Shown piece after piece: positions 31,189 to 36,253 of a DNA stretch of 64,000 nucleotides; position 1 is the first letter of the stretch; the number at the start of each line of letters is the position of its first letter. The DNA is taken from the NCBI GenBank assembly GCA_041651095.1, contig JBAZJV010000003.1:16293-80292 (forward strand), written 5' to 3'. The position numbers were made by a program, and so were the translations under genes. Below the pieces are notes generated by a model. It did no database searches. It was not told the DNA's origin and saw only the letters and a program-made list of their open reading frames with translations. The stretch comes from Patescibacteria group bacterium (GTDB lineage Bacteria; Patescibacteriota; Patescibacteriia; Patescibacteriales; UBA12465).

Positions 31189-31212
31189 TTATTTAGTCTA
31201 TTAATAGGTGTA

Positions 31213-31222
31213 TTAATATACA
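31213..31222 (+). repeat. Left copy of the 10-bp direct repeat TTAATATACA (candidate att core)
   Basis: Exact match to 36262-36271. It is embedded in a dyad GTGTATTAA...TTAAACAC. Confidence 0.4.
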
Positions 31223-31321
31223 CTTTTAAACACTTTTCGACTTTCTGTTTCGTTCTCGTGGGGTAGGGAACTGAAAATTTTAAAAATTTGATTTGATTTT
31301 CTTATGATTTTTAAAGCGCTA

Positions 31322-31361
31322 AAAAATCCGCGTTTCCGGCGCGAGCCGGAAGCGGATTTTT
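31322..31361. other. Long imperfect hairpin in noncoding region
   Basis: AAAAATCCGCGTTTCCGGC-gcga-GCCGGAAGCGGATTTTT. Confidence 0.6.
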
Positions 31362-31484
31362 CTGTGGTTTGATCAGAACCTTGTTTTAAAACCATATAAC
31401 ACGATTTAAGATTTTTGTCAATAGTTGCTGATGTTTCATGGATACTTTTAGTCTAGCGTTTTAGCTCTCAAAAGTCAACCCCTG

Positions 31485-31517
31485 AAAATCGGCCGATTTT
31501 TGCTCGGGCCGATTTTT
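31485..31517. repeat. 16-bp perfect palindrome plus short direct repeat
   Basis: AAAATCGGCCGATTTT (31485-31500). GGCCGATTTTT is repeated at 31491-31501 and 31507-31517. Confidence 0.6.
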
Positions 31518-31526
31518 TTTAAATAC

Positions 31527-31562
31527 AAAAAACCTAGGCTCTTTCCCAAGGCCCGGTTTTTT
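31527..31562 (-). terminator. Probable terminator of the minus-strand phage-like operon
   Basis: AAAAAACC-ta-GGC ... GCC-c-GGTTTTTT. On the minus strand the hairpin is followed by a T-run. It lies about 100 nt after the Zot-like stop. Confidence 0.5.
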
Positions 31563-31660
31563 GCAGTTTATAATCACGTTAGTGATTTAGATTTTTCCAG
31601 TCCGCCGGGATATCGTCAGCCTTAGCCGCAGAGTCCCGGCGTCCATGTTTCTAACGGTGT

Positions 31661-32515
31661 CTATGTGTTCTTCGGTCTGTTTTTCAATTGGTTTTCGCTT
31701 ATCGCTCCCCGGTACGGTTTCAATACTTCCGTTTTTTTGTAGGGTATCCACTTGATTTCCTGTTCCTTGATTTCCAGATCGTAGTCCGAGTCGTACATCC
31801 CGCTAGGTATCGTTTTTAATATTTCTTCCTTATGCTTCGGGCAGTGTTTTTCCCCTTCCTGTCTTCCCGCGCATTTTTCACAGAATTTATGCTCTAATTC
31901 TATTTTTTTTTCGTTCAATTCCTTGTGTATTAACTTCTCTTTTTGGTACCACTTTATCCTTCTTTTTCCTCCTACCTGTTTGAAATCCCCTTCAATTCCT
32001 TCCCCTAATTCCCAGCCATATGACAGTTTTTTCAGTTCTTGGTACGTCATTTGCTGGTAGCTGATCCTTAGGAAGTCTTTTTTTATTATTTTTCCGATCC
32101 ACTCCATTATTCCGGCCTCGATTTTTTCACACAGTATCCATTCGTCGACCACTATCCAAGCTGATTTCGCCACCAGGCTGATATCCTGCGTCGTTCCGTA
32201 GATGTCGACGTGGTGGTGTCGGTGGAGCTGGAAGAACCGTCTGATATTGCCGCTTTCCTGTTCCCAGGCCCGGGGTTCCATTACTTGTCCGATTTCGTCC
32301 ATGACCAGCACGCAGTTCCGCAGCGTCGGCGCCAGCTCCTCAAACTCTTCGGCCGTGAAAAAATGGAGGTTCGGTCCCTTCCAGTTGATCCAGAAGTTGC
32401 ACCAGACTTCCTGTCCGTCGAGCAAATGCGGCAGCAGGTCTTCTTCTACCAGTCCGAGGCTTTTGCCCGATCCCGGTAGCCCCAGTCTTATTGAAAATGT
32501 TGATCCTTCTATCAT
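31661..32515 (-). CDS. Zot / inovirus pI-like assembly ATPase (no TM domain; C-terminal Cys/His cluster)
   Basis: 284 aa. Walker A GLPGSGKS at aa 12-19 and Walker B VLVMDEIG. FFQLHRHHHVDIYGTTQDISLVAKSA parallels M13 pI WFLHARKLGWDIIFLVQDLSIVDKQA. C-terminal CEKCAGRQEGEKHCPKH. Confidence 0.72.
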   Translation of the reverse strand: MIEGSTFSIRLGLPGSGKSLGLVEEDLLPHLLDGQEVWCNFWINWKGPNLHFFTAEEFEELAPTLRNCVLVMDEIGQVMEPRAWEQESGNIRRFFQLHRHHHVDIYGTTQDISLVAKSAWIVVDEWILCEKIEAGIMEWIGKIIKKDFLRISYQQMTYQELKKLSYGWELGEGIEGDFKQVGGKRRIKWYQKEKLIHKELNEKKIELEHKFCEKCAGRQEGEKHCPKHKEEILKTIPSGMYDSDYDLEIKEQEIKWIPYKKTEVLKPYRGAISENQLKNRPKNT

Positions 32516-32522
32516 ATTTTTT

Positions 32523-32632
32523 CGCTCCGCGCGACGGGATTTGGGTCGTTTCTGGCCGCCGTCCTTCGGAGCGATTTGCCAGCCCGCGCGACGGGATTTG
32601 GGTCGTTTCTGGCCGCCGTCCTTCGGGCTGGC
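32523..32632. repeat. Tandem twin hairpins with identical 43-nt core (32527-32569, 32584-32626)
   Basis: Copy A has basal stem CGCTCCG/CGGAGCG. Copy B has basal stem GCCAGCCCG/CGGGCTGGC. Both share an inner stem GACGG/CCGTC and a 21-nt loop. The copies are 4 nt apart. Confidence 0.9.
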
Positions 32633-32641
32633 AGCTCTTTG

Positions 32642-32905
32642 TTAAATTTTCGTCGCCGCCGGAACGCCTGTTCGGCCCTCACGGCCGCTCACAGGCGTTG
32701 CTGCCGGCGGTAGCTCTCTTTTTTTGATTTCCTCTAAGGCGTCCAAATGTCTCACCCAGCGTTCCATCCGGTCCCGTAGGTCCTTTTGCTCGGCCTTCCA
32801 TTCCACGTACCAATCCGCCCAGAATTTAGCCCCTAGGCCGCAAAATACGCCGAAGATGAAAGCGATTAAGTACCACATACTAATTTCTAAAAAAACTGGC
32901 GACAA
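32642..32905 (-). CDS. Small membrane protein (N-terminal TM, charged helical tail)
   Basis: 87 aa. Overlaps the upstream ORF by 26 nt. Part of the co-directional module. Confidence 0.4.
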   Translation of the reverse strand: MSPVFLEISMWYLIAFIFGVFCGLGAKFWADWYVEWKAEQKDLRDRMERWVRHLDALEEIKKRELPPAATPVSGREGRTGVPAATKI

Positions 32906-33155
32906 ACAGGTAGGCTTTGTAGGCGTACCAAGCCACCAGCAGTCCCAGGTCTATTCCGATCCAAAAATACAGCCCGAAGGCGCCGTTTATATCCCAAATA
33001 AAATTCGAGAGCATAAGCAGCCGCCGCGCCAAAGCCAAAGCCACCGTCATGATCGTCCAGATCGGCGTCAGCAGGTAGTTCACCGTGGTTCCCAAGATCG
33101 CCAGGCCCCCCAGTATTATTCCCGCCATTACGACTTGTTTTAAAGTGTTGAACAT
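32880..33155 (-). CDS. pVI-like small 3-TM protein
   Basis: 91 aa with three hydrophobic helices. It follows the pIII-like gene with a 1-nt gap, as gene VI follows gene III in Ff phages. Confidence 0.45.
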   Translation of the reverse strand: MFNTLKQVVMAGIILGGLAILGTTVNYLLTPIWTIMTVALALARRLLMLSNFIWDINGAFGLYFWIGIDLGLLVAWYAYKAYLFVASFFRN

Positions 33156-33156
33156 A

Positions 33157-34593
33157 TCAGTCTTTTTGGTGGGACACTTTCCAGCTAAAAATTATAATCC
33201 CTATCAGCGACAAGGTAGCCATGACGTACGGCGACAATCCTCTTATATTTTCAAAAACGTCCTCAACGTCTTCGTTGCCGGCCGCCAGCCCGGGTCCCCA
33301 AAGGGTGATCGTGGTCGTGGTGCTTGTCCAGGAGGCCGGCATGGTCAGTTTCACGTCGCCGCCTTCATCCCCGGCCAACCAAGAAAGAGTTGACGGTATT
33401 GTCGCCGTCGCCGAGTCGGTCCAGCATTGGTTTATCCTCGTAGCCAGCGAGAAAGGGAAGATGATTTTTGTCGAATTAATCAGTCCACCTATGCCCGATT
33501 TCACTTGGTCCCTTAATCCAAAATAGATTTTGTACCAGGTGAAAACGGAATTGCATTTTATTTCAGTCCACCAGTCCGTTTCCGCCCACTCAGCGTCTGT
33601 GCAGGCTATCCGGTGTGCCGTGCCGGCTGGATCGTCTTCTGACATATACCCGACGCTGAATTCCCAGTCCGTCGTGGTGGCTGGCGAGAAATTTTGGTCC
33701 ACGCTCGCGACGTTCGGTGAGCTGGTCGGGTGGTAGAAACTGTCGTCAATATATATCGTCGTTGTTCCGATTAACCCCGACCCGTTGTATATCGCCGTGA
33801 AGTTTGGGCTGCTTGAAGCGTGGCAGTCGACCAAGCCGCCGCGCCAGGGCCCCAAAGGATCGATCCCGGTCGAAGTCGCGGAGCTGATCGTCATTTGGTA
33901 GTAGCCGGAGCCGTATTGGGCGCAGGTTCCGCTTAGCGTCAAAATTTGGCTGATTGAGTCGAAGCTTTGGGAAGTTATCGCGAGCGTCGTTCCGCCGGCG
34001 GCCGGATCCGTGTAGACCTTAAAAGCGAAATCTCGATTGGTGAGCGTCCAGCCGTAGCCCTCATAATAGAGCCGGCCGTCGGCGTATTTGTCCCCGTCGT
34101 AGTTGCTGGCTCTAATGTTCATACCAGTTGCGTCCGCGTCCGTTTCTTTTACTTTTATCAGATAATAATGGCCGGCCGTGGTAGGGTAGGGGGTTGAGAA
34201 GTCAAAATCGTACCAGCCAGTGGTTGAGAAGTCCGTATAGTCCCGGCCCGCGCTTTCTTGCGGCGTGTCTGTGCAGCTTAATGAGGTTAAGCTGCTTATT
34301 TCGCAAAGTTCGACGCTAAAAGTATTCGGCCCGTGCACGCCTAGTATGTTTAGCGACACCATTGACACATTCGTTGAGCTGGCCGTAAAGGACTGGTATT
34401 TTAAAGTGTTTCCCGAAGCGTTAAAAAGCATTTCGTCCGCATCACTAAAAGTCTGTTCAATAGACACCTCGTCAGCCGCCAGAGCTGAACGAGGCGAGGA
34501 TAAGGCCAATAATAACCCAAAGAGCAAAGCCGCCGCCAAAACCCCACCAGAAGCTAGACCAGTCCATAAATTTTTTATCTTAGATATTGGCAC
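33157..34593 (-). CDS. pIII-like secreted, C-terminally anchored protein (candidate receptor-binding minor coat protein)
   Basis: 478 aa. Signal peptide ending ALA|ADE, a Ser/Thr/Gly-rich beta-type body with several Cys, and a C-terminal TM (YVMATLSLIGIIIFSW) with a short basic tail. Confidence 0.5.
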   Translation of the reverse strand: MPISKIKNLWTGLASGGVLAAALLFGLLLALSSPRSALAADEVSIEQTFSDADEMLFNASGNTLKYQSFTASSTNVSMVSLNILGVHGPNTFSVELCEISSLTSLSCTDTPQESAGRDYTDFSTTGWYDFDFSTPYPTTAGHYYLIKVKETDADATGMNIRASNYDGDKYADGRLYYEGYGWTLTNRDFAFKVYTDPAAGGTTLAITSQSFDSISQILTLSGTCAQYGSGYYQMTISSATSTGIDPLGPWRGGLVDCHASSSPNFTAIYNGSGLIGTTTIYIDDSFYHPTSSPNVASVDQNFSPATTTDWEFSVGYMSEDDPAGTAHRIACTDAEWAETDWWTEIKCNSVFTWYKIYFGLRDQVKSGIGGLINSTKIIFPFSLATRINQCWTDSATATIPSTLSWLAGDEGGDVKLTMPASWTSTTTTITLWGPGLAAGNEDVEDVFENIRGLSPYVMATLSLIGIIIFSWKVSHQKD

Positions 34594-34820
34594 AGATTTT
34601 GAGCAAAATTGATCATTATTTTTTCATTAAAAATCGTCCACCAAGCAAAAAAAACTCCTAGAAAAACCGCCCATTTAAAACCGATGAAAAAGCTATCGAA
34701 TAGGGTGTAGATAGCCGCTCTTTTCCAGGTCATTTTTTTGCCCTGGTAATCATAAGCTCTCGTCGGGTGCTGGCTTTCCATATAGTCCTCGGCGTATTTT
34801 TCGAATTCTTTTTTTTTCAT
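34575..34820 (-). CDS. Small membrane protein
   Basis: 81 aa with a C-terminal hydrophobic hairpin. Overlaps both neighbouring ORFs. Confidence 0.4.
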   Translation of the reverse strand: MKKKEFEKYAEDYMESQHPTRAYDYQGKKMTWKRAAIYTLFDSFFIGFKWAVFLGVFFAWWTIFNEKIMINFAQNLCQYLR

Positions 34821-35002
34821 AAAATTTTTTTGCCTTCAATTCTAAAAATTAAACAAAAAATTATAATATAGGCCCACCAATTTGGTGTGTAGCTCGAAAG
34901 AGTATTCAACAAAATAGTCATTATTACCCCTATTGCTGTTAGCGGCGTTAGTTCTATCCAAATTTTCATAATTTTTGCGCCGCAGGCGTGTGCCGCAGGC
35001 AT
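34817..35002 (-). CDS. Small 2-TM protein
   Basis: 61 aa. Its start abuts the stop of the Zn-ribbon ORF. An internal MKIW start is possible. Confidence 0.35.
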   Translation of the reverse strand: MPAAHACGAKIMKIWIELTPLTAIGVIMTILLNTLSSYTPNWWAYIIIFCLIFRIEGKKIL

Positions 35003-35170
35003 TTATTTTTGTTTGCTTTCGCCGTAAATTTTTAAAAGCCAGTCTATTGCCACCATTCCGCCGCCGCAATTAGAGCAAATGATTTCCAGTTTTCCCGGTG
35101 TCGGCGGCCAGAGTTTTATCTCTTTGTCTTCTATATTTCGGCAGTTTAAGCAAATTTGTTTTTGTTTCAT
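35003..35170 (-). CDS. 55-aa zinc-ribbon protein
   Basis: Hand-translated as MKQKQICLNCRNIEDKEIKLWPPTPGKLEIICSNCGGGMVAIDWLLKIYGESKQK, with a CxxC...CxxC pattern. Below the ORF-track cutoff. Confidence 0.4.
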   Translation of the reverse strand: MKQKQICLNCRNIEDKEIKLWPPTPGKLEIICSNCGGGMVAIDWLLKIYGESKQK

Positions 35171-35171
35171 A

Positions 35172-35192
35172 TTCGCTATATAGGGAAGCGAA
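35172..35192. repeat. Inverted repeat TTCGCT-N9-AGCGAA sharing the arm motif of the dif-like site
   Basis: TTCGCT (35172-35177) and AGCGAA(G) (35187-35193). Compare the dif-like arms CTTCGCT and TGCGAAG at 36256-36281. Confidence 0.45.
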
Positions 35193-35197
35193 GCGTT

Positions 35198-35334
35198 TTT
35201 TAAAAATTGAGCGAAGCTAGTGGAGCAGGCTCTCGTCTGCTGAAATGCCGTCCATGGGGCAGAGGAAAAGCACCTCCGTCTTTATCCCCCGGCAGGGCTT
35301 ATGTTCAGCAGACGAGAACCGTCAATTTTTAAAA
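35198..35334. other. 137-nt three-tier imperfect hairpin
   Basis: 13-bp outer stem (35198-35210 with 35322-35334). 13-bp inner stem (35232-35244 with 35304-35316). Apical TGCCG..GGGG / CCCC-CGGCA pairing (35246-35259 with 35286-35294). Confidence 0.75.
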
Positions 35335-35340
35335 TAGGGA

Positions 35341-35358
35341 AGTGGGGCGTCCCCCACT
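35341..35358 (-). terminator. Hairpin immediately after the coat-protein stop
   Basis: AGTGGGG-cgtc-CCCCACT, starting 5 nt after the stop codon. The T-rich tract on the minus strand follows after 4 nt. Confidence 0.45.
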
Positions 35359-35362
35359 GAAC

Positions 35363-35647
35363 CTATCTGCGCCGCCGGCCGCCGGTGATCGCGCCCCTTA
35401 TCTTGATGTAGGCCCAAGTCAGAGCGGCGATCGTTAAGCCGATAAGCAGCGCCTTGCCCCAGGTGGTTGCCAAAAACGACATCGTTGCTGGAGTGTTGTC
35501 GTTTATTGCCAAAGTTCCTGTTGCTAAGGCCGCTATGTAATCAGCGTCCGCGGCTGCGAGGGCCTTCTGGCCCAAAATGGCAAAACCTAAGCCGAAAAGT
35601 CCTAGGCTGAAAGCCACCTTTGCCGCGTACTTTTTCAATATTTTCAT
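35363..35647 (-). CDS. pVIII-like major coat protein precursor
   Basis: 94 aa. Signal peptide MKILKKYAAKVAFSLGLFGLGFAILGQKALA. Mature protein has an acidic start AADADY, one TM (WGKALLIGLTIAALTWAYI) and a basic tail KIRGAITGGRRRR. Strong SD (AAGGAGGTGA) 5 nt upstream. Confidence 0.65.
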   Translation of the reverse strand: MKILKKYAAKVAFSLGLFGLGFAILGQKALAAADADYIAALATGTLAINDNTPATMSFLATTWGKALLIGLTIAALTWAYIKIRGAITGGRRRR

Positions 35648-35693
35648 GCTTCACCTCCTTTCTAGAAAAATTTTATTAAAAAATTTTTTAACT

Positions 35694-35780
35694 TTAAGGT
35701 ATCCATCGGATTAGAAGCCCTAGTCCGACCATAAGGGTTTCAAAAGTCCACCAGTCTTGGAATAATAAGGTCATTTCCAT
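35694..35780 (-). CDS. Possible 28-aa hydrophobic micro-protein (pVII/pIX-sized)
   Basis: Hand-translated as MEMTLLFQDWWTFETLMVGLGLLIRWIP. Supported only by position and size. Confidence 0.2.
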   Translation of the reverse strand: MEMTLLFQDWWTFETLMVGLGLLIRWIP

Positions 35781-35841
35781 ATGGTTGCTGTTAGACGGTC
35801 GCCGGCCCAACGGAGGGCCTCGATCATCAGTATTATTAAAA

Positions 35842-36066
35842 TCAAACCTGACGGCTGCTCCATATTTTTCTTTTTCGGTAGTTCGCGATTGCGTATACCG
35901 TGATTATTCCAAGAATGATTTTTCCGATCAGATACACCGTTCCAAACCAGTCATAAGTAATAATGGTATTTATTTGCTTTTCGGCGCAAAAATTGCCATT
36001 TGAGCTTTCGGTCAGACACAGTTCGGTCGTCGTCGCTCTTTGTTGGTTGTATAGCATAGAGGGCAT
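35842..36066 (-). CDS. Small protein with C-terminal TM and basic tail
   Basis: 74 aa ending ...VYLIGKIILGIITVYAIANYRKRK.... First ORF of the co-directional module. Confidence 0.4.
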   Translation of the reverse strand: MPSMLYNQQRATTTELCLTESSNGNFCAEKQINTIITYDWFGTVYLIGKIILGIITVYAIANYRKRKIWSSRQV

Positions 36067-36198
36067 TTTAAGACGCCTGCGGCAGCACGCGGCTAGAAGC
36101 CGCGCGGCTTAAAATTAGGCACCAGAAATCACGCATGGCTTCGTTACATTTTACTATCTTTTTATTGGCGATTATGCCATAATTTAGATGAAGATTTT

Positions 36199-36213
36199 TA
36201 CTTCGCATAATGT
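36199..36213 (+). repeat. Inverted partial copy of the dif-like site (arm plus 3 nt of centre)
   Basis: TACTTCGCATAATGT is the exact reverse complement of 36269-36283. The downstream half (CGATGGTTTTTG) is degenerate. Confidence 0.7.
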
Positions 36214-36253
36214 CGATGGTTTTTGTTTATTGGCTTGTTTTTATCTAAAAAAA

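Follow-up and report, generated by a model that had tools for sequence, protein, structure and literature searches.

The window analysed here is a stretch of 64,000 nucleotides from a Patescibacteria group bacterium (contig JBAZJV010000003.1), and the element under study is a 137-nt hairpin at positions 35198-35334, situated within a prophage with filamentous-phage-like genes. The genes of its neighbourhood are all on the minus strand (hereafter, the gene strand), where the order is major-coat-like gene (35647 to 35363), small hairpin (35358 to 35341), large hairpin and Zn-ribbon open reading frame (ORF; 35170 to 35003). An initial annotation of this DNA had placed the large hairpin downstream of the coat gene, which is right for the minus strand, downstream meaning lower coordinates, and had given a gap of 192 nt between the coat-like gene and the Zn-ribbon ORF, a figure that we recovered. 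The coat-like gene (35363-35647, minus strand) encodes a 94-aa protein with a signal peptide, an acidic N-terminus, a hydrophobic core and a C-terminal GGRRRR, and is preceded by a strong Shine-Dalgarno (SD) sequence. Directly after its stop codon lies the small GC-rich hairpin (35341-35358, minus strand), which is real and was the sole terminator-like site flagged here by the terminator scan. The Zn-ribbon ORF (35003-35170, minus strand; 55 aa, CxxC...CxxC) has no SD, and a CCCTATATAG box (35176-35185, minus strand) is located between the large hairpin and its ATG (35168-35170). The homologue search with the coat-like protein retrieved that protein only, and the protein of the Zn-ribbon ORF likewise retrieved only itself in a search of 5.8 billion proteins.

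On the gene strand, the large hairpin consists of a 13-bp outer stem (P1), a 17-bp inner stem (P2) and a branched tip. The two arms of P1 (35198-35210 and 35322-35334) form 13 Watson-Crick pairs out of 13, with the 5′ arm TTTTAAAAATTGA (35322-35334) being the exact complement of the 3′ arm TCAATTTTTAAAA (35198-35210), as originally described. The same is true of the perfect 13-bp inner stem proposed at the outset, formed by CTCGTCTGCTGAA (35232-35244) and TTCAGCAGACGAG (35304-35316); the helix in fact reaches 17 bp (35228-35244 with 35304-35320) and is 94% complementary, with a single T.G on the gene strand. Read on that strand, the 5′ arm of P2 is GGTTCTCGTCTGCTGAA (35304-35320), in which the base GGTTC is conserved and the other 12 nt constitute a variable stem, and the complementary 3′ arm is TTCAGCAGACGAGAGCC (35228-35244). 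Between the two stems there is a one-sided junction loop of 17 nt (35211-35227, minus strand; TGCTCCACTAGCTTCGC). An asymmetric internal loop had been annotated at this point, and it is present, but it is not filler: its sequence is strongly conserved. The loop may contain a 3-bp mini-hairpin (P3, GCT/AGC), in which one C-G to U.G change was observed in the alignment described below. The tip (35245-35303, minus strand) is the least defined part of the structure; the apical pairings TGCCG/CGGCA and GGGG/CCCC exist, but the predicted fold varies with the strand and with the use of RNA or DNA energy parameters.

The stability of the hairpin was determined by folding both strands, each of them with RNA and with DNA parameters, against 200 dinucleotide-preserving shuffles per case. 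The values for the gene strand were -60.5 kcal/mol (z = -6.4) as RNA and -34.2 kcal/mol (z = -6.4) as DNA, and those for the plus strand were -56.8 kcal/mol (z = -3.6) and -33.6 kcal/mol (z = -5.2), respectively. None of the 200 shuffled sequences was as stable in any of the four cases. These data indicate that the 137-base hairpin is real and far beyond chance.

One explanation for a stable structure at this position is that of a plain oversized Rho-independent terminator of the coat gene, and in Ff phages a strong terminator does follow gene VIII. However, a separate terminator-like hairpin is already present at 35341-35358, ahead of the large one, and the earlier remark that the structure is much larger than needed for termination is well founded. 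The large hairpin has no trailing U-tract, its only U-run being inside the outer stem, and neither the conserved 17-nt unpaired motif nor the downstream box is a terminator feature. In addition, relatives of the prophage manage with a simple hairpin at this place. A terminator of this sort is considered very improbable.

The host prophage and its clade

The prophage containing the hairpin (31213-36271, minus strand; 5.06 kb) is bounded by dif-like 28-mers at 36255-36282 and 31206-31233, which have the common core TGTATATTAA and are 5,049 bp apart. On the gene strand, the site at 36255-36282 reads ACTTCGCATAA-TGTATA-TTAAGCGAAGT, and is identical in 20 of 28 positions, including the same TGTATA centre, to the dif sequence of E. 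coli. A Xer-like recombinase gene (36395-37351), with best matches to XerC/XerD (E ~1e-65), is located approximately 110 bp from this site, and the genes flanking the prophage are ordinary bacterial genes. The 5 kb surrounding the hairpin encode, all on one strand, an NTPase with a Zot domain (Pfam E = 4.5e-13; PHROGs 'Zot-like toxin' E = 1.6e-15), a secreted protein of 478 aa, a number of small membrane proteins and the 94-aa coat-like protein. The Zot domain and the coat-like protein bear out the filamentous-phage-like setting previously described. Inoviruses carry on one strand a morphogenesis ATPase (pI/Zot), a small major coat protein and a large adsorption protein, along with a rolling-circle Rep; the prophage has the Zot domain, the coat-like protein and the large secreted protein, and a Rep gene was not found.

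The Zot protein has 62 recovered homologues, and ones of 58-68% identity were found on contigs of 4.6-6.2 kb. The free circular relatives measure 4.6-5.6 kb and most of them lack a recombinase gene; two contigs (L020 and L021) are circular permutations of a single 5,398-bp sequence, and for another one (L016), whose circularity is not established, the contig ends in a partial ORF resembling an integrase. When the free circle L018 is opened at L018:2260-2391, it is collinear with the prophage of the window. No attP-like dif site was recognisable by sequence in the free relatives, presumably due to their different hosts. Dif-like flanks, an integrase-less free form and a nearby xer gene, which are the marks of Xer-exploiting elements, were all found for the prophage as a whole and not for the hairpin, and on this basis the prophage would appear to be an element of Patescibacteria that makes use of Xer for its integration. 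No Rep protein was detected in any complete circle, even when single stop-codon types were read through. Since the clade has no replication gene and integrates at a dimer-resolution site, non-coding signals must carry most of its biology.

The location of the prophage at a dif-like site beside a Xer-type recombinase gene raises the question of whether the hairpin might itself be an attachment site of the type found in CTX phage, that is, a forked hairpin of two inverted dif-like sites for Xer integration of a single-stranded genome; CTX-phi integrates via a hairpin of approximately 150 nt. However, the hairpin is found whole and well inside the prophage, with the coat gene on one side and the adsorption gene on the other, and the prophage junctions are 0.9 and 4 kb off (36255-36282 and 31206-31233), with the opening point mapping to L018:2260-2391. 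Comparison of the sequences revealed no similarity of the stems to the dif-like site. The position of the hairpin effectively refutes this role.

Several other features of the clade were recorded. Neither a replication initiator nor a single-strand-binding protein is encoded in clade members L016-L028 and L160-L163 or in the window prophage, and the region of approximately 1 kb between Zot and the first structural gene contains tiny ORFs only, even with one stop-codon type read through. Hidden genes that would be revealed by stop-codon reassignment were considered for the large non-coding region of a relative, and none was found. The Zot-like protein (31661-32515, minus strand) has no hydrophobic membrane segment and carries an invariant C-x2-C ... 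C-x2-H cluster in its C-terminal half, and immediately upstream of its gene there is a separate one for a membrane protein of 51-87 aa. A perfect 43-nt direct repeat (32527-32569 and 32584-32626, spaced 57 nt) is located in the intergenic region just upstream of the Zot start. In another stretch of the prophage (31321-31421, minus strand), a perfect TTGACA-17-TATATG promoter (31393-31421) is followed after approximately 30 nt by a strong terminator (AAAAATCCGC...GCGGATTTTTT). This unit, which runs into the integration site, is 79% conserved in L018:2118-2260 and looks like a small-RNA gene of approximately 65 nt; the 60-aa 'ORF' at 31213-31395 is probably not a gene. In the closest IMG/VR relative (L001:3933-4003), an inverted repeat of DnaA-box-like 9-mers (TGTGGATAA twice, then TTATCCACA) is located just after Zot, and two assemblies of the same phage (L024:5307-5422 and L025:4033-4181) differ in having two and three copies, respectively, of a 33-nt tandem repeat directly after the coat gene.

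Conservation of the hairpin in related elements

Relatives of the element were reached through the Zot-like protein because the flanking proteins have no retrievable homologues, independent assemblies of the element being 100% identical. The region after the coat gene was then folded in these relatives, genome by genome. Full homologous hairpins were found at the same place in two of them (L018:3226-3367 and L028:1025-1176). The 13-bp outer stem is identical in the three sequences, the P2 base GGTTC/GAGCC is invariant, including its T.G pair, and the 17-nt one-sided loop (TGYTCCRCTAGCTNNGC) is near-identical, with 1-3 differences in 17 positions among the three copies (TGCTCCACTAGCTTCGC, TGTTCCACTAGCTTCGC, TGCTCCGCTAGCTCTGC). 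The next 12-14 bp of the inner stem are unrelated in sequence (TCGTCTGCTGAA, TTTTTTCTAGAAAA, CAATCTGTAAAAAT), and each of them is perfectly complemented; the tips are also unrelated, both in sequence and in length. In the three-sequence alignment, 99% of the cells are paired, and 7 of the 12 pairs above the P2 base have changed on both sides, values that were reached by none of 500 shuffles. Sliding the partners by 1-3 columns reduced the pairing to 38-60%, and RNAalifold independently produced the same P1, P2 and P3 helices. Conserved pairing in homologous elements, on which the initial annotation had made its proposal depend, was observed, with compensatory changes.

Two variants of the element were recovered in addition to the three full-length copies. 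A short version of 72 nt, present in L026/L027, contains the motif GTTCCACTAGCT and a 9-bp hairpin on the other side of this motif, and the outer stem of L026 shows a G-C to A-T double change with respect to the window. A mini-version of 42 nt is found upstream of the Zot gene in L016, where the stem GATATTTTTA/TAAAAATATC encloses ATGTTCCACTAGCTAAAGCTC; the loop core GTTCCACTAGCT is also present in this variant. A covariance model (R1) built from the three full copies gave the window hairpin a score of 153.7 bits, and matched only these loci in the 333 kb of window plus relatives. Seven other relatives (L001, L019, L020, L022, L024, L029 and L163) carry other hairpins after the coat gene and lack this element, despite having homologous small membrane proteins and Zot proteins of 60-68% identity. 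In the comparison of the window with L018, the hairpin base is the best-conserved stretch of DNA, with 97% identity over 36 nt vs 80% for the best stretch of the Zot gene. Altogether, the data indicate that the element is modular, with a sequence-constrained base (P1, GGTTC/GAGCC and the unpaired motif) and a structure-constrained upper stem. Because pairing has been kept with compensating changes in related elements, the hairpin is a functional or self-maintaining signal, and it is of a previously undescribed type.

No known family accounts for this signal. The Rfam collection (4227 models) gave no match in the window at the gathering threshold, no relevant match at E ≤ 10 in 35000-35700 and none in L018, L028 and L026 at E ≤ 1, so that the scan proposed in the initial annotation retrieved no unrelated known family. 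No tRNA or tmRNA was found, and blastn searches against GenBank phages and against 72,556 PLSDB plasmids gave no match. Readings as a tRNA-like element, a retron, a hammerhead or another ribozyme were considered and rejected, as no supporting feature was found. The integron attC reading was also discarded: R''/R' cores (RYYYAAC ... GTTRRRY) are absent from the hairpin foot, and the recombinase scores best as XerC/XerD and not as an integron integrase.

A self-maintaining signal may have no function for the phage, and we considered whether the hairpin might be a selfish palindromic insertion in the intergenic region, either a MITE-like (miniature inverted-repeat transposable element) or hairpin-borne mini-element or a template-switch palindrome. 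The window copy is bracketed exactly by a 17-nt imperfect direct repeat, with the right copy ACGCTTCGCTTCCCTAT at 35180-35196 (minus strand) and the left copy ACGCCCCACTTCCCTAT at 35334-35350; the two are identical in 14 of 17 positions, and their 9-nt core occurs at these two places only in the 64 kb. MITEs have terminal inverted repeats flanked by a target-site duplication, and in the window the outer stem could represent the former and this imperfect repeat the latter. The presence or absence of the element among relatives, the related base module at a second genomic position in L016, and inner stems that are perfect but unrelated, as expected of palindromes regenerated at the DNA level, also speak in favour of such an insertion. 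However, the direct repeat was not seen around the L018 or L028 copies, which have no consistent duplication, and genome homology continues past the outer stem on both sides, which fits one ancestral acquisition and not a recent transposition. The interiors are wholly different and the ends near-identical, the reverse of what is seen in young MITE families, and the conserved non-palindromic 17-nt junction implies selection on sequence. Regarding copy number, multiple similar copies were not found: there is one per genome, at the same site and with unrelated interiors, as far as scans of limited power can tell. No other copy was present in the 64 kb of the host window, nor was one found among related loci totalling 333 kb, and absence elsewhere is weakly supported. 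Exact and degenerate pattern scans of IMG/VR (inner stem, 3′ block, 5′ block and the motif B described below) gave nothing real, the 114 matches to the 5′ block being all due to chance and mostly in coding sequence, and a scan of JGI metagenomes with the 3′ block was empty, which is weak evidence in a collection that lacks even the known positive loci. A selfish insertion is considered unlikely.

The relatives contain two other structures near the coat gene. A second large hairpin is located directly upstream of the element in L018 (L018:3112-3214), with a 15-bp perfect outer stem (AATTGAGGGGCCAAA/TTTGGCCCCTCAATT) and 73 nt between the arms, which have AATTGA/TCAATT in common with the outer stem of the element. 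A different structured motif follows the coat gene in other genomes (L016:2033-2121, L019:4220-4343, L022:2902-2974, L026:751-810 and L029/L162:1163-1277); it has a covarying outer stem (ATTGC/GCAAT, TTAAC/GTTAA, and ATCGC/GTGAT with G.T), a variable inner stem and conserved TTAG and CTAGGACTGAAAG strands, and gave no Rfam match for the one locus scanned (L026).

Placement before start codons and candidate roles

The five occurrences of the element (5/5) share the gene strand and a distance of 14-30 nt to a downstream ATG that has no SD. After the element, a CCCT(A/T)TA(G/A/T) box is present in L016, L018 and L028. L016 and L028 have the 12-mer CCCTTTAGTATG in common, without any difference, although it precedes two different genes: the ATG in L016 is the true start of Zot, and that in L028 belongs to the ORF that follows the coat gene. 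The coat genes, in contrast, have strong SD sequences with AAGGAGGTGA-type sites. Most of the 12 Zot genes examined have a GC-rich hairpin 8-13 nt upstream of a start without SD, and in every relative examined the coat gene is trailed by at least one stable GC-rich hairpin, mostly without a U-tract. Given this placement before SD-less starts, a role in gene expression is at least as strongly indicated as those proposed in the initial annotation, which did not include it. That annotation had listed a packaging signal, an origin element and a structured RNA; the notion of something more than a terminator stands, while no single one of these roles is established.

The slot between the hairpin and the following gene boundary is variable. 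In L018 it contains an unrelated 71-aa ORF instead of the Zn-ribbon ORF, the behaviour of a variable 'moron' position. A second conserved intergenic motif (motif B; 34976-35001, minus strand; TGCCTGCGGCRCACGCCTRCGGCGCA) is located directly upstream of an ATG and closes this slot both in the window, after the Zn-ribbon ORF, and in L018, after the 71-aa ORF. It consists of two 13-nt direct repeats (TGCCTGCGGCACAC GCCTGCGGCGCA) and occurs, at L018:3612-3637 and L028:3393-3418 besides the window, in exactly the three genomes with the full hairpin and at different genes, with an inverted half-copy at 36073-36083 of the window. Motif B could be an operator, an iteron or another start-associated cassette. 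A GCGAAGC mini-hairpin motif on the plus strand (35188 and 35211) was also considered and discarded, being neither enriched in the window nor conserved in L028.

Our preferred reading, which we put forward tentatively and with less than even confidence, is that the hairpin may be a cassette of the gene (sense) strand that marks an mRNA boundary and serves in processing and in translation control. This reading builds on the observed structure, its compensatory conservation, the modular build and the fixed distance to start codons, while the molecular level at which it acts (RNA or viral single-stranded DNA) and the factor involved are what we infer. The cassette would mark the point where the coat-gene unit, with its high expression, gives way to the downstream genes for minor proteins and assembly. 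It would combine a conserved base module, made of the AT-rich closing stem, the single-stranded GTTCCACTAGCT/TGCTCCACTAGCTTCGC and the CCCTWTAG box, with a long upper-stem module whose sequence would be free to change provided that pairing stays. On a polycistronic mRNA, the stable upper hairpin and the small hairpin preceding it could block 3′-exonucleases and so stabilise the coat mRNA, and the unpaired conserved junction on the 3′ side might be the recognition or cleavage site for a host factor or an endoribonuclease. The closed outer stem would sequester the AU-rich leader of the next gene, and cleavage or opening would free this leader for weak, SD-independent translation. The expected outcome would be an abundant coat protein and scarce downstream proteins.

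Structured elements before SD-less starts are the rule in this clade, which supports the preferred reading. The strand is indicated by the invariant T.G wobble at the P2 base, which is a T.G on the gene strand and a C.A mismatch on the other one. The patchy presence of the element among close relatives is also easier to reconcile with an accessory role in expression than with a site that replication or packaging could not do without.

Other observations weigh against an expression cassette acting as RNA. Among the approximately 39 variable pairs of the lower 30 bp there is no G.U, all of them being Watson-Crick with the exception of one C.A, and the folding energy favours the gene strand in the window and L018 but not in L028 and L026. 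This pattern of pairing and energy is closer to that of a palindrome in DNA than to that of an RNA helix selected only as RNA. The promoter scan revealed no sigma-70-type promoter in or after the hairpin, and downstream expression would therefore need read-through of the small terminator-like hairpin; such read-through, the cleavage and the effect on translation are steps that we infer from sequence. It has to be noted, too, that the statistics come from few sequences, namely three full copies and two variants.

The search for promoters bears on a different explanation, according to which the motif is a site in double-stranded DNA, an operator or unconventional promoter for the downstream genes, the palindromic arms being incidental. 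The conserved motif is located just upstream of gene starts and after a terminator-like hairpin, and the gene III promoter of Ff phages lies in the matching position, after the terminator and before the gene start. Motif B (34976-35001) is a further conserved motif close to start codons, present in the three genomes with the full hairpin, and a likeness to the two promoter hexamers is seen for TTGACG in the 5′ arm of P1 and for TAAAAT in the 3′ arm of L018 and L028. However, manual inspection of the five copies revealed no -35/-10 pair with conserved spacing, and the scan found none on either strand; ECF-type and sigma-54-type motifs were considered by eye and rejected. The element carries a canonical TTGACA-17-TATATG elsewhere (31393-31421), and the host therefore appears to use standard promoters. 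The perfect pairing of 12-14 variable base pairs would also be left unexplained. Altogether, we regard an operator or promoter as improbable.

The DNA-like pairing pattern points to another candidate, in which the hairpin would operate on the single-stranded DNA packaged by the phage (plus strand), identical in sequence to the mRNA, as a complementary-strand origin, as a morphogenetic packaging signal or as both. In the single-strand-origin version, the duplex arms would be kept free of single-strand-binding protein and the junction would be the primer start or stop for host RNA polymerase or primase. The gene strand, on which the hairpin forms, would be the packaged one if this clade is like known inoviruses. 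The element has the Zot domain and the coat-like protein of filamentous phages, which need hairpins of this sort. No inverted repeat of the window prophage, L018 or L028 is longer or more stable than the hairpin, whose stems are perfectly Watson-Crick paired and whose two strands are equally stable as DNA. A Rep-less clade must in addition rely on cis sites read by host or helper enzymes. The architecture, with a conserved base plus unpaired motif, a variable stem and a length of approximately 140-150 nt, is like that of ssoA-type origins, as are the orientation dependence, the flexible position and the cassette-like patchy distribution (PMC5703833). The loop motif TAGCTT of the window and L018 is identical in 5 of 6 positions to TAGCGT, the CS-6 sequence of ssoA (PMC4598088), the TAGCTC of L028 and L026 being identical in 4 of 6, although it is located in the internal one-sided loop and not in a terminal loop. 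Moreover, the packaging signals of integrative filamentous phages can sit outside the main intergenic region (bioRxiv 10.1101/2023.12.30.573655).

On the other hand, the element is absent from most close relatives with homologous assembly proteins (the seven listed above), and conservation among phages sharing such proteins, which is expected of a packaging signal, was not found. The 42-nt base copy of L016 folds at only about -2 to -3 kcal/mol, too weak for a DNA signal, and neither the distance of 14-30 nt to the start codon nor the common CCCTTTAGTATG would be explained. No sequence similar to the RSB that ssoA origins have at the stem base (e.g. TTATGCCGAGAAAATTT) was present in or near the hairpin, which also lacks similarity to plasmids and phages. 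With these data, a signal on the viral strand is possible but doubtful, although among the alternatives it comes closest to the preferred reading in likelihood.

The more specific form of this proposal, that the hairpin is a cis replication and/or packaging determinant of Rep-less, Xer-integrating filamentous elements of approximately 5 kb in Patescibacteria, working as a single-strand origin read by the host, is more doubtful again. The conserved base and the junction would in that case be the recognition site, and the freely evolving perfect stem would be a purely structural spacer. If it were true, cassette-like exchange between genomes would explain why the hairpin is conserved above any gene.

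Comparison with known systems

Cis-acting hairpins govern replication, packaging and gene dosage in filamentous phages, and have been characterised in few model phages of Proteobacteria. The present finding is a structured element with clear limits, in phages of the Patescibacteria, a group of uncultured bacteria whose genomes are very small, and the hairpin could act as a sequence tag for finding this clade in metagenomes. Its two-part design is unusual, with a near-invariant base and unpaired motif below an upper stem that is replaceable and always perfect.

The ssoA-type origins of pT181/pLS1 (palA) resemble the element in size (approximately 140-160 nt), in having a large hairpin on one strand only, and in the combination of a conserved base sequence and a short conserved unpaired motif with variable stems. 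Their function is orientation-specific, their position in the replicon is flexible and their distribution is patchy and cassette-like (PMC5703833), with CS-6 in the terminal loop (PMC4598088). The element under study differs from them in that no RSB-like sequence or plasmid sequence similarity was found, in that the unpaired motif is in an internal one-sided loop and not in the terminal loop, and in that it is part of a Rep-less replicon and always abuts a start codon.

The packaging signals of filamentous phages are also viral-strand hairpins, of 54-78 nt in f1/Ike and of 20-26 nt in Xanthomonas integrative phages of the phi-Lf type; conserved nucleotides of both stem and loop matter for their function, and they may lie outside the main intergenic region (bioRxiv 10.1101/2023.12.30.573655). 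The hairpin described here is 2-6 times longer, lacks the GGX(A/-)CCG(C/T)G consensus, and is missing from most relatives with homologous assembly proteins. In its location between the genes for the major coat and the adsorption protein, at a border between strong and weak expression, it is like the terminator found after gene VIII in Ff phages. The small hairpin at 35341-35358 is the better candidate for such a role here; the large one has no U-tract and has a conserved unpaired sequence. With the attP(+) of CTX-phi it has in common a host element at a dif-like site beside a xer-type gene, and a similar hairpin size; the difference is that the present hairpin is internal, intact and unrelated to the dif-like sequence, with the attachment region elsewhere.

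Regarding RNA-level systems, the RNase III hairpins of T7 early mRNA (R1.1) are intergenic, with an asymmetric internal loop separating a lower from an upper stem. Cleavage on the 3′ side of this loop frees the downstream mRNA, while the upstream mRNA keeps a hairpin that protects it. The succession of stem, asymmetric loop and second stem is the same in the element, but its loop is far more asymmetric (1 vs 17 nt) and its stems are longer, and the two are not known to be related in sequence. Mobile promoter-stem-loop cassettes are known in T4-type phages. In Cluster K mycobacteriophages, start-associated sequences with extended inverted repeats have been described (PMC3203893). As in these cassettes, a short conserved sequence before starts is combined in the present element with an inverted repeat, recurs at different genes and flanks slots with unrelated small ORFs (here, the Zn-ribbon ORF vs the 71-aa ORF); the sequences are other ones, there are 1-2 copies per genome instead of many, and the inverted repeat encloses a long variable hairpin.

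The hairpin has the defining sequence features of none of these systems, whether ssoA origins, Ff/phi-Lf packaging signals, T7 RNase III sites or start-associated cassettes. Without a match in Rfam, GenBank phages or plasmids, it is, in kind, a cis-acting intergenic hairpin of phages.

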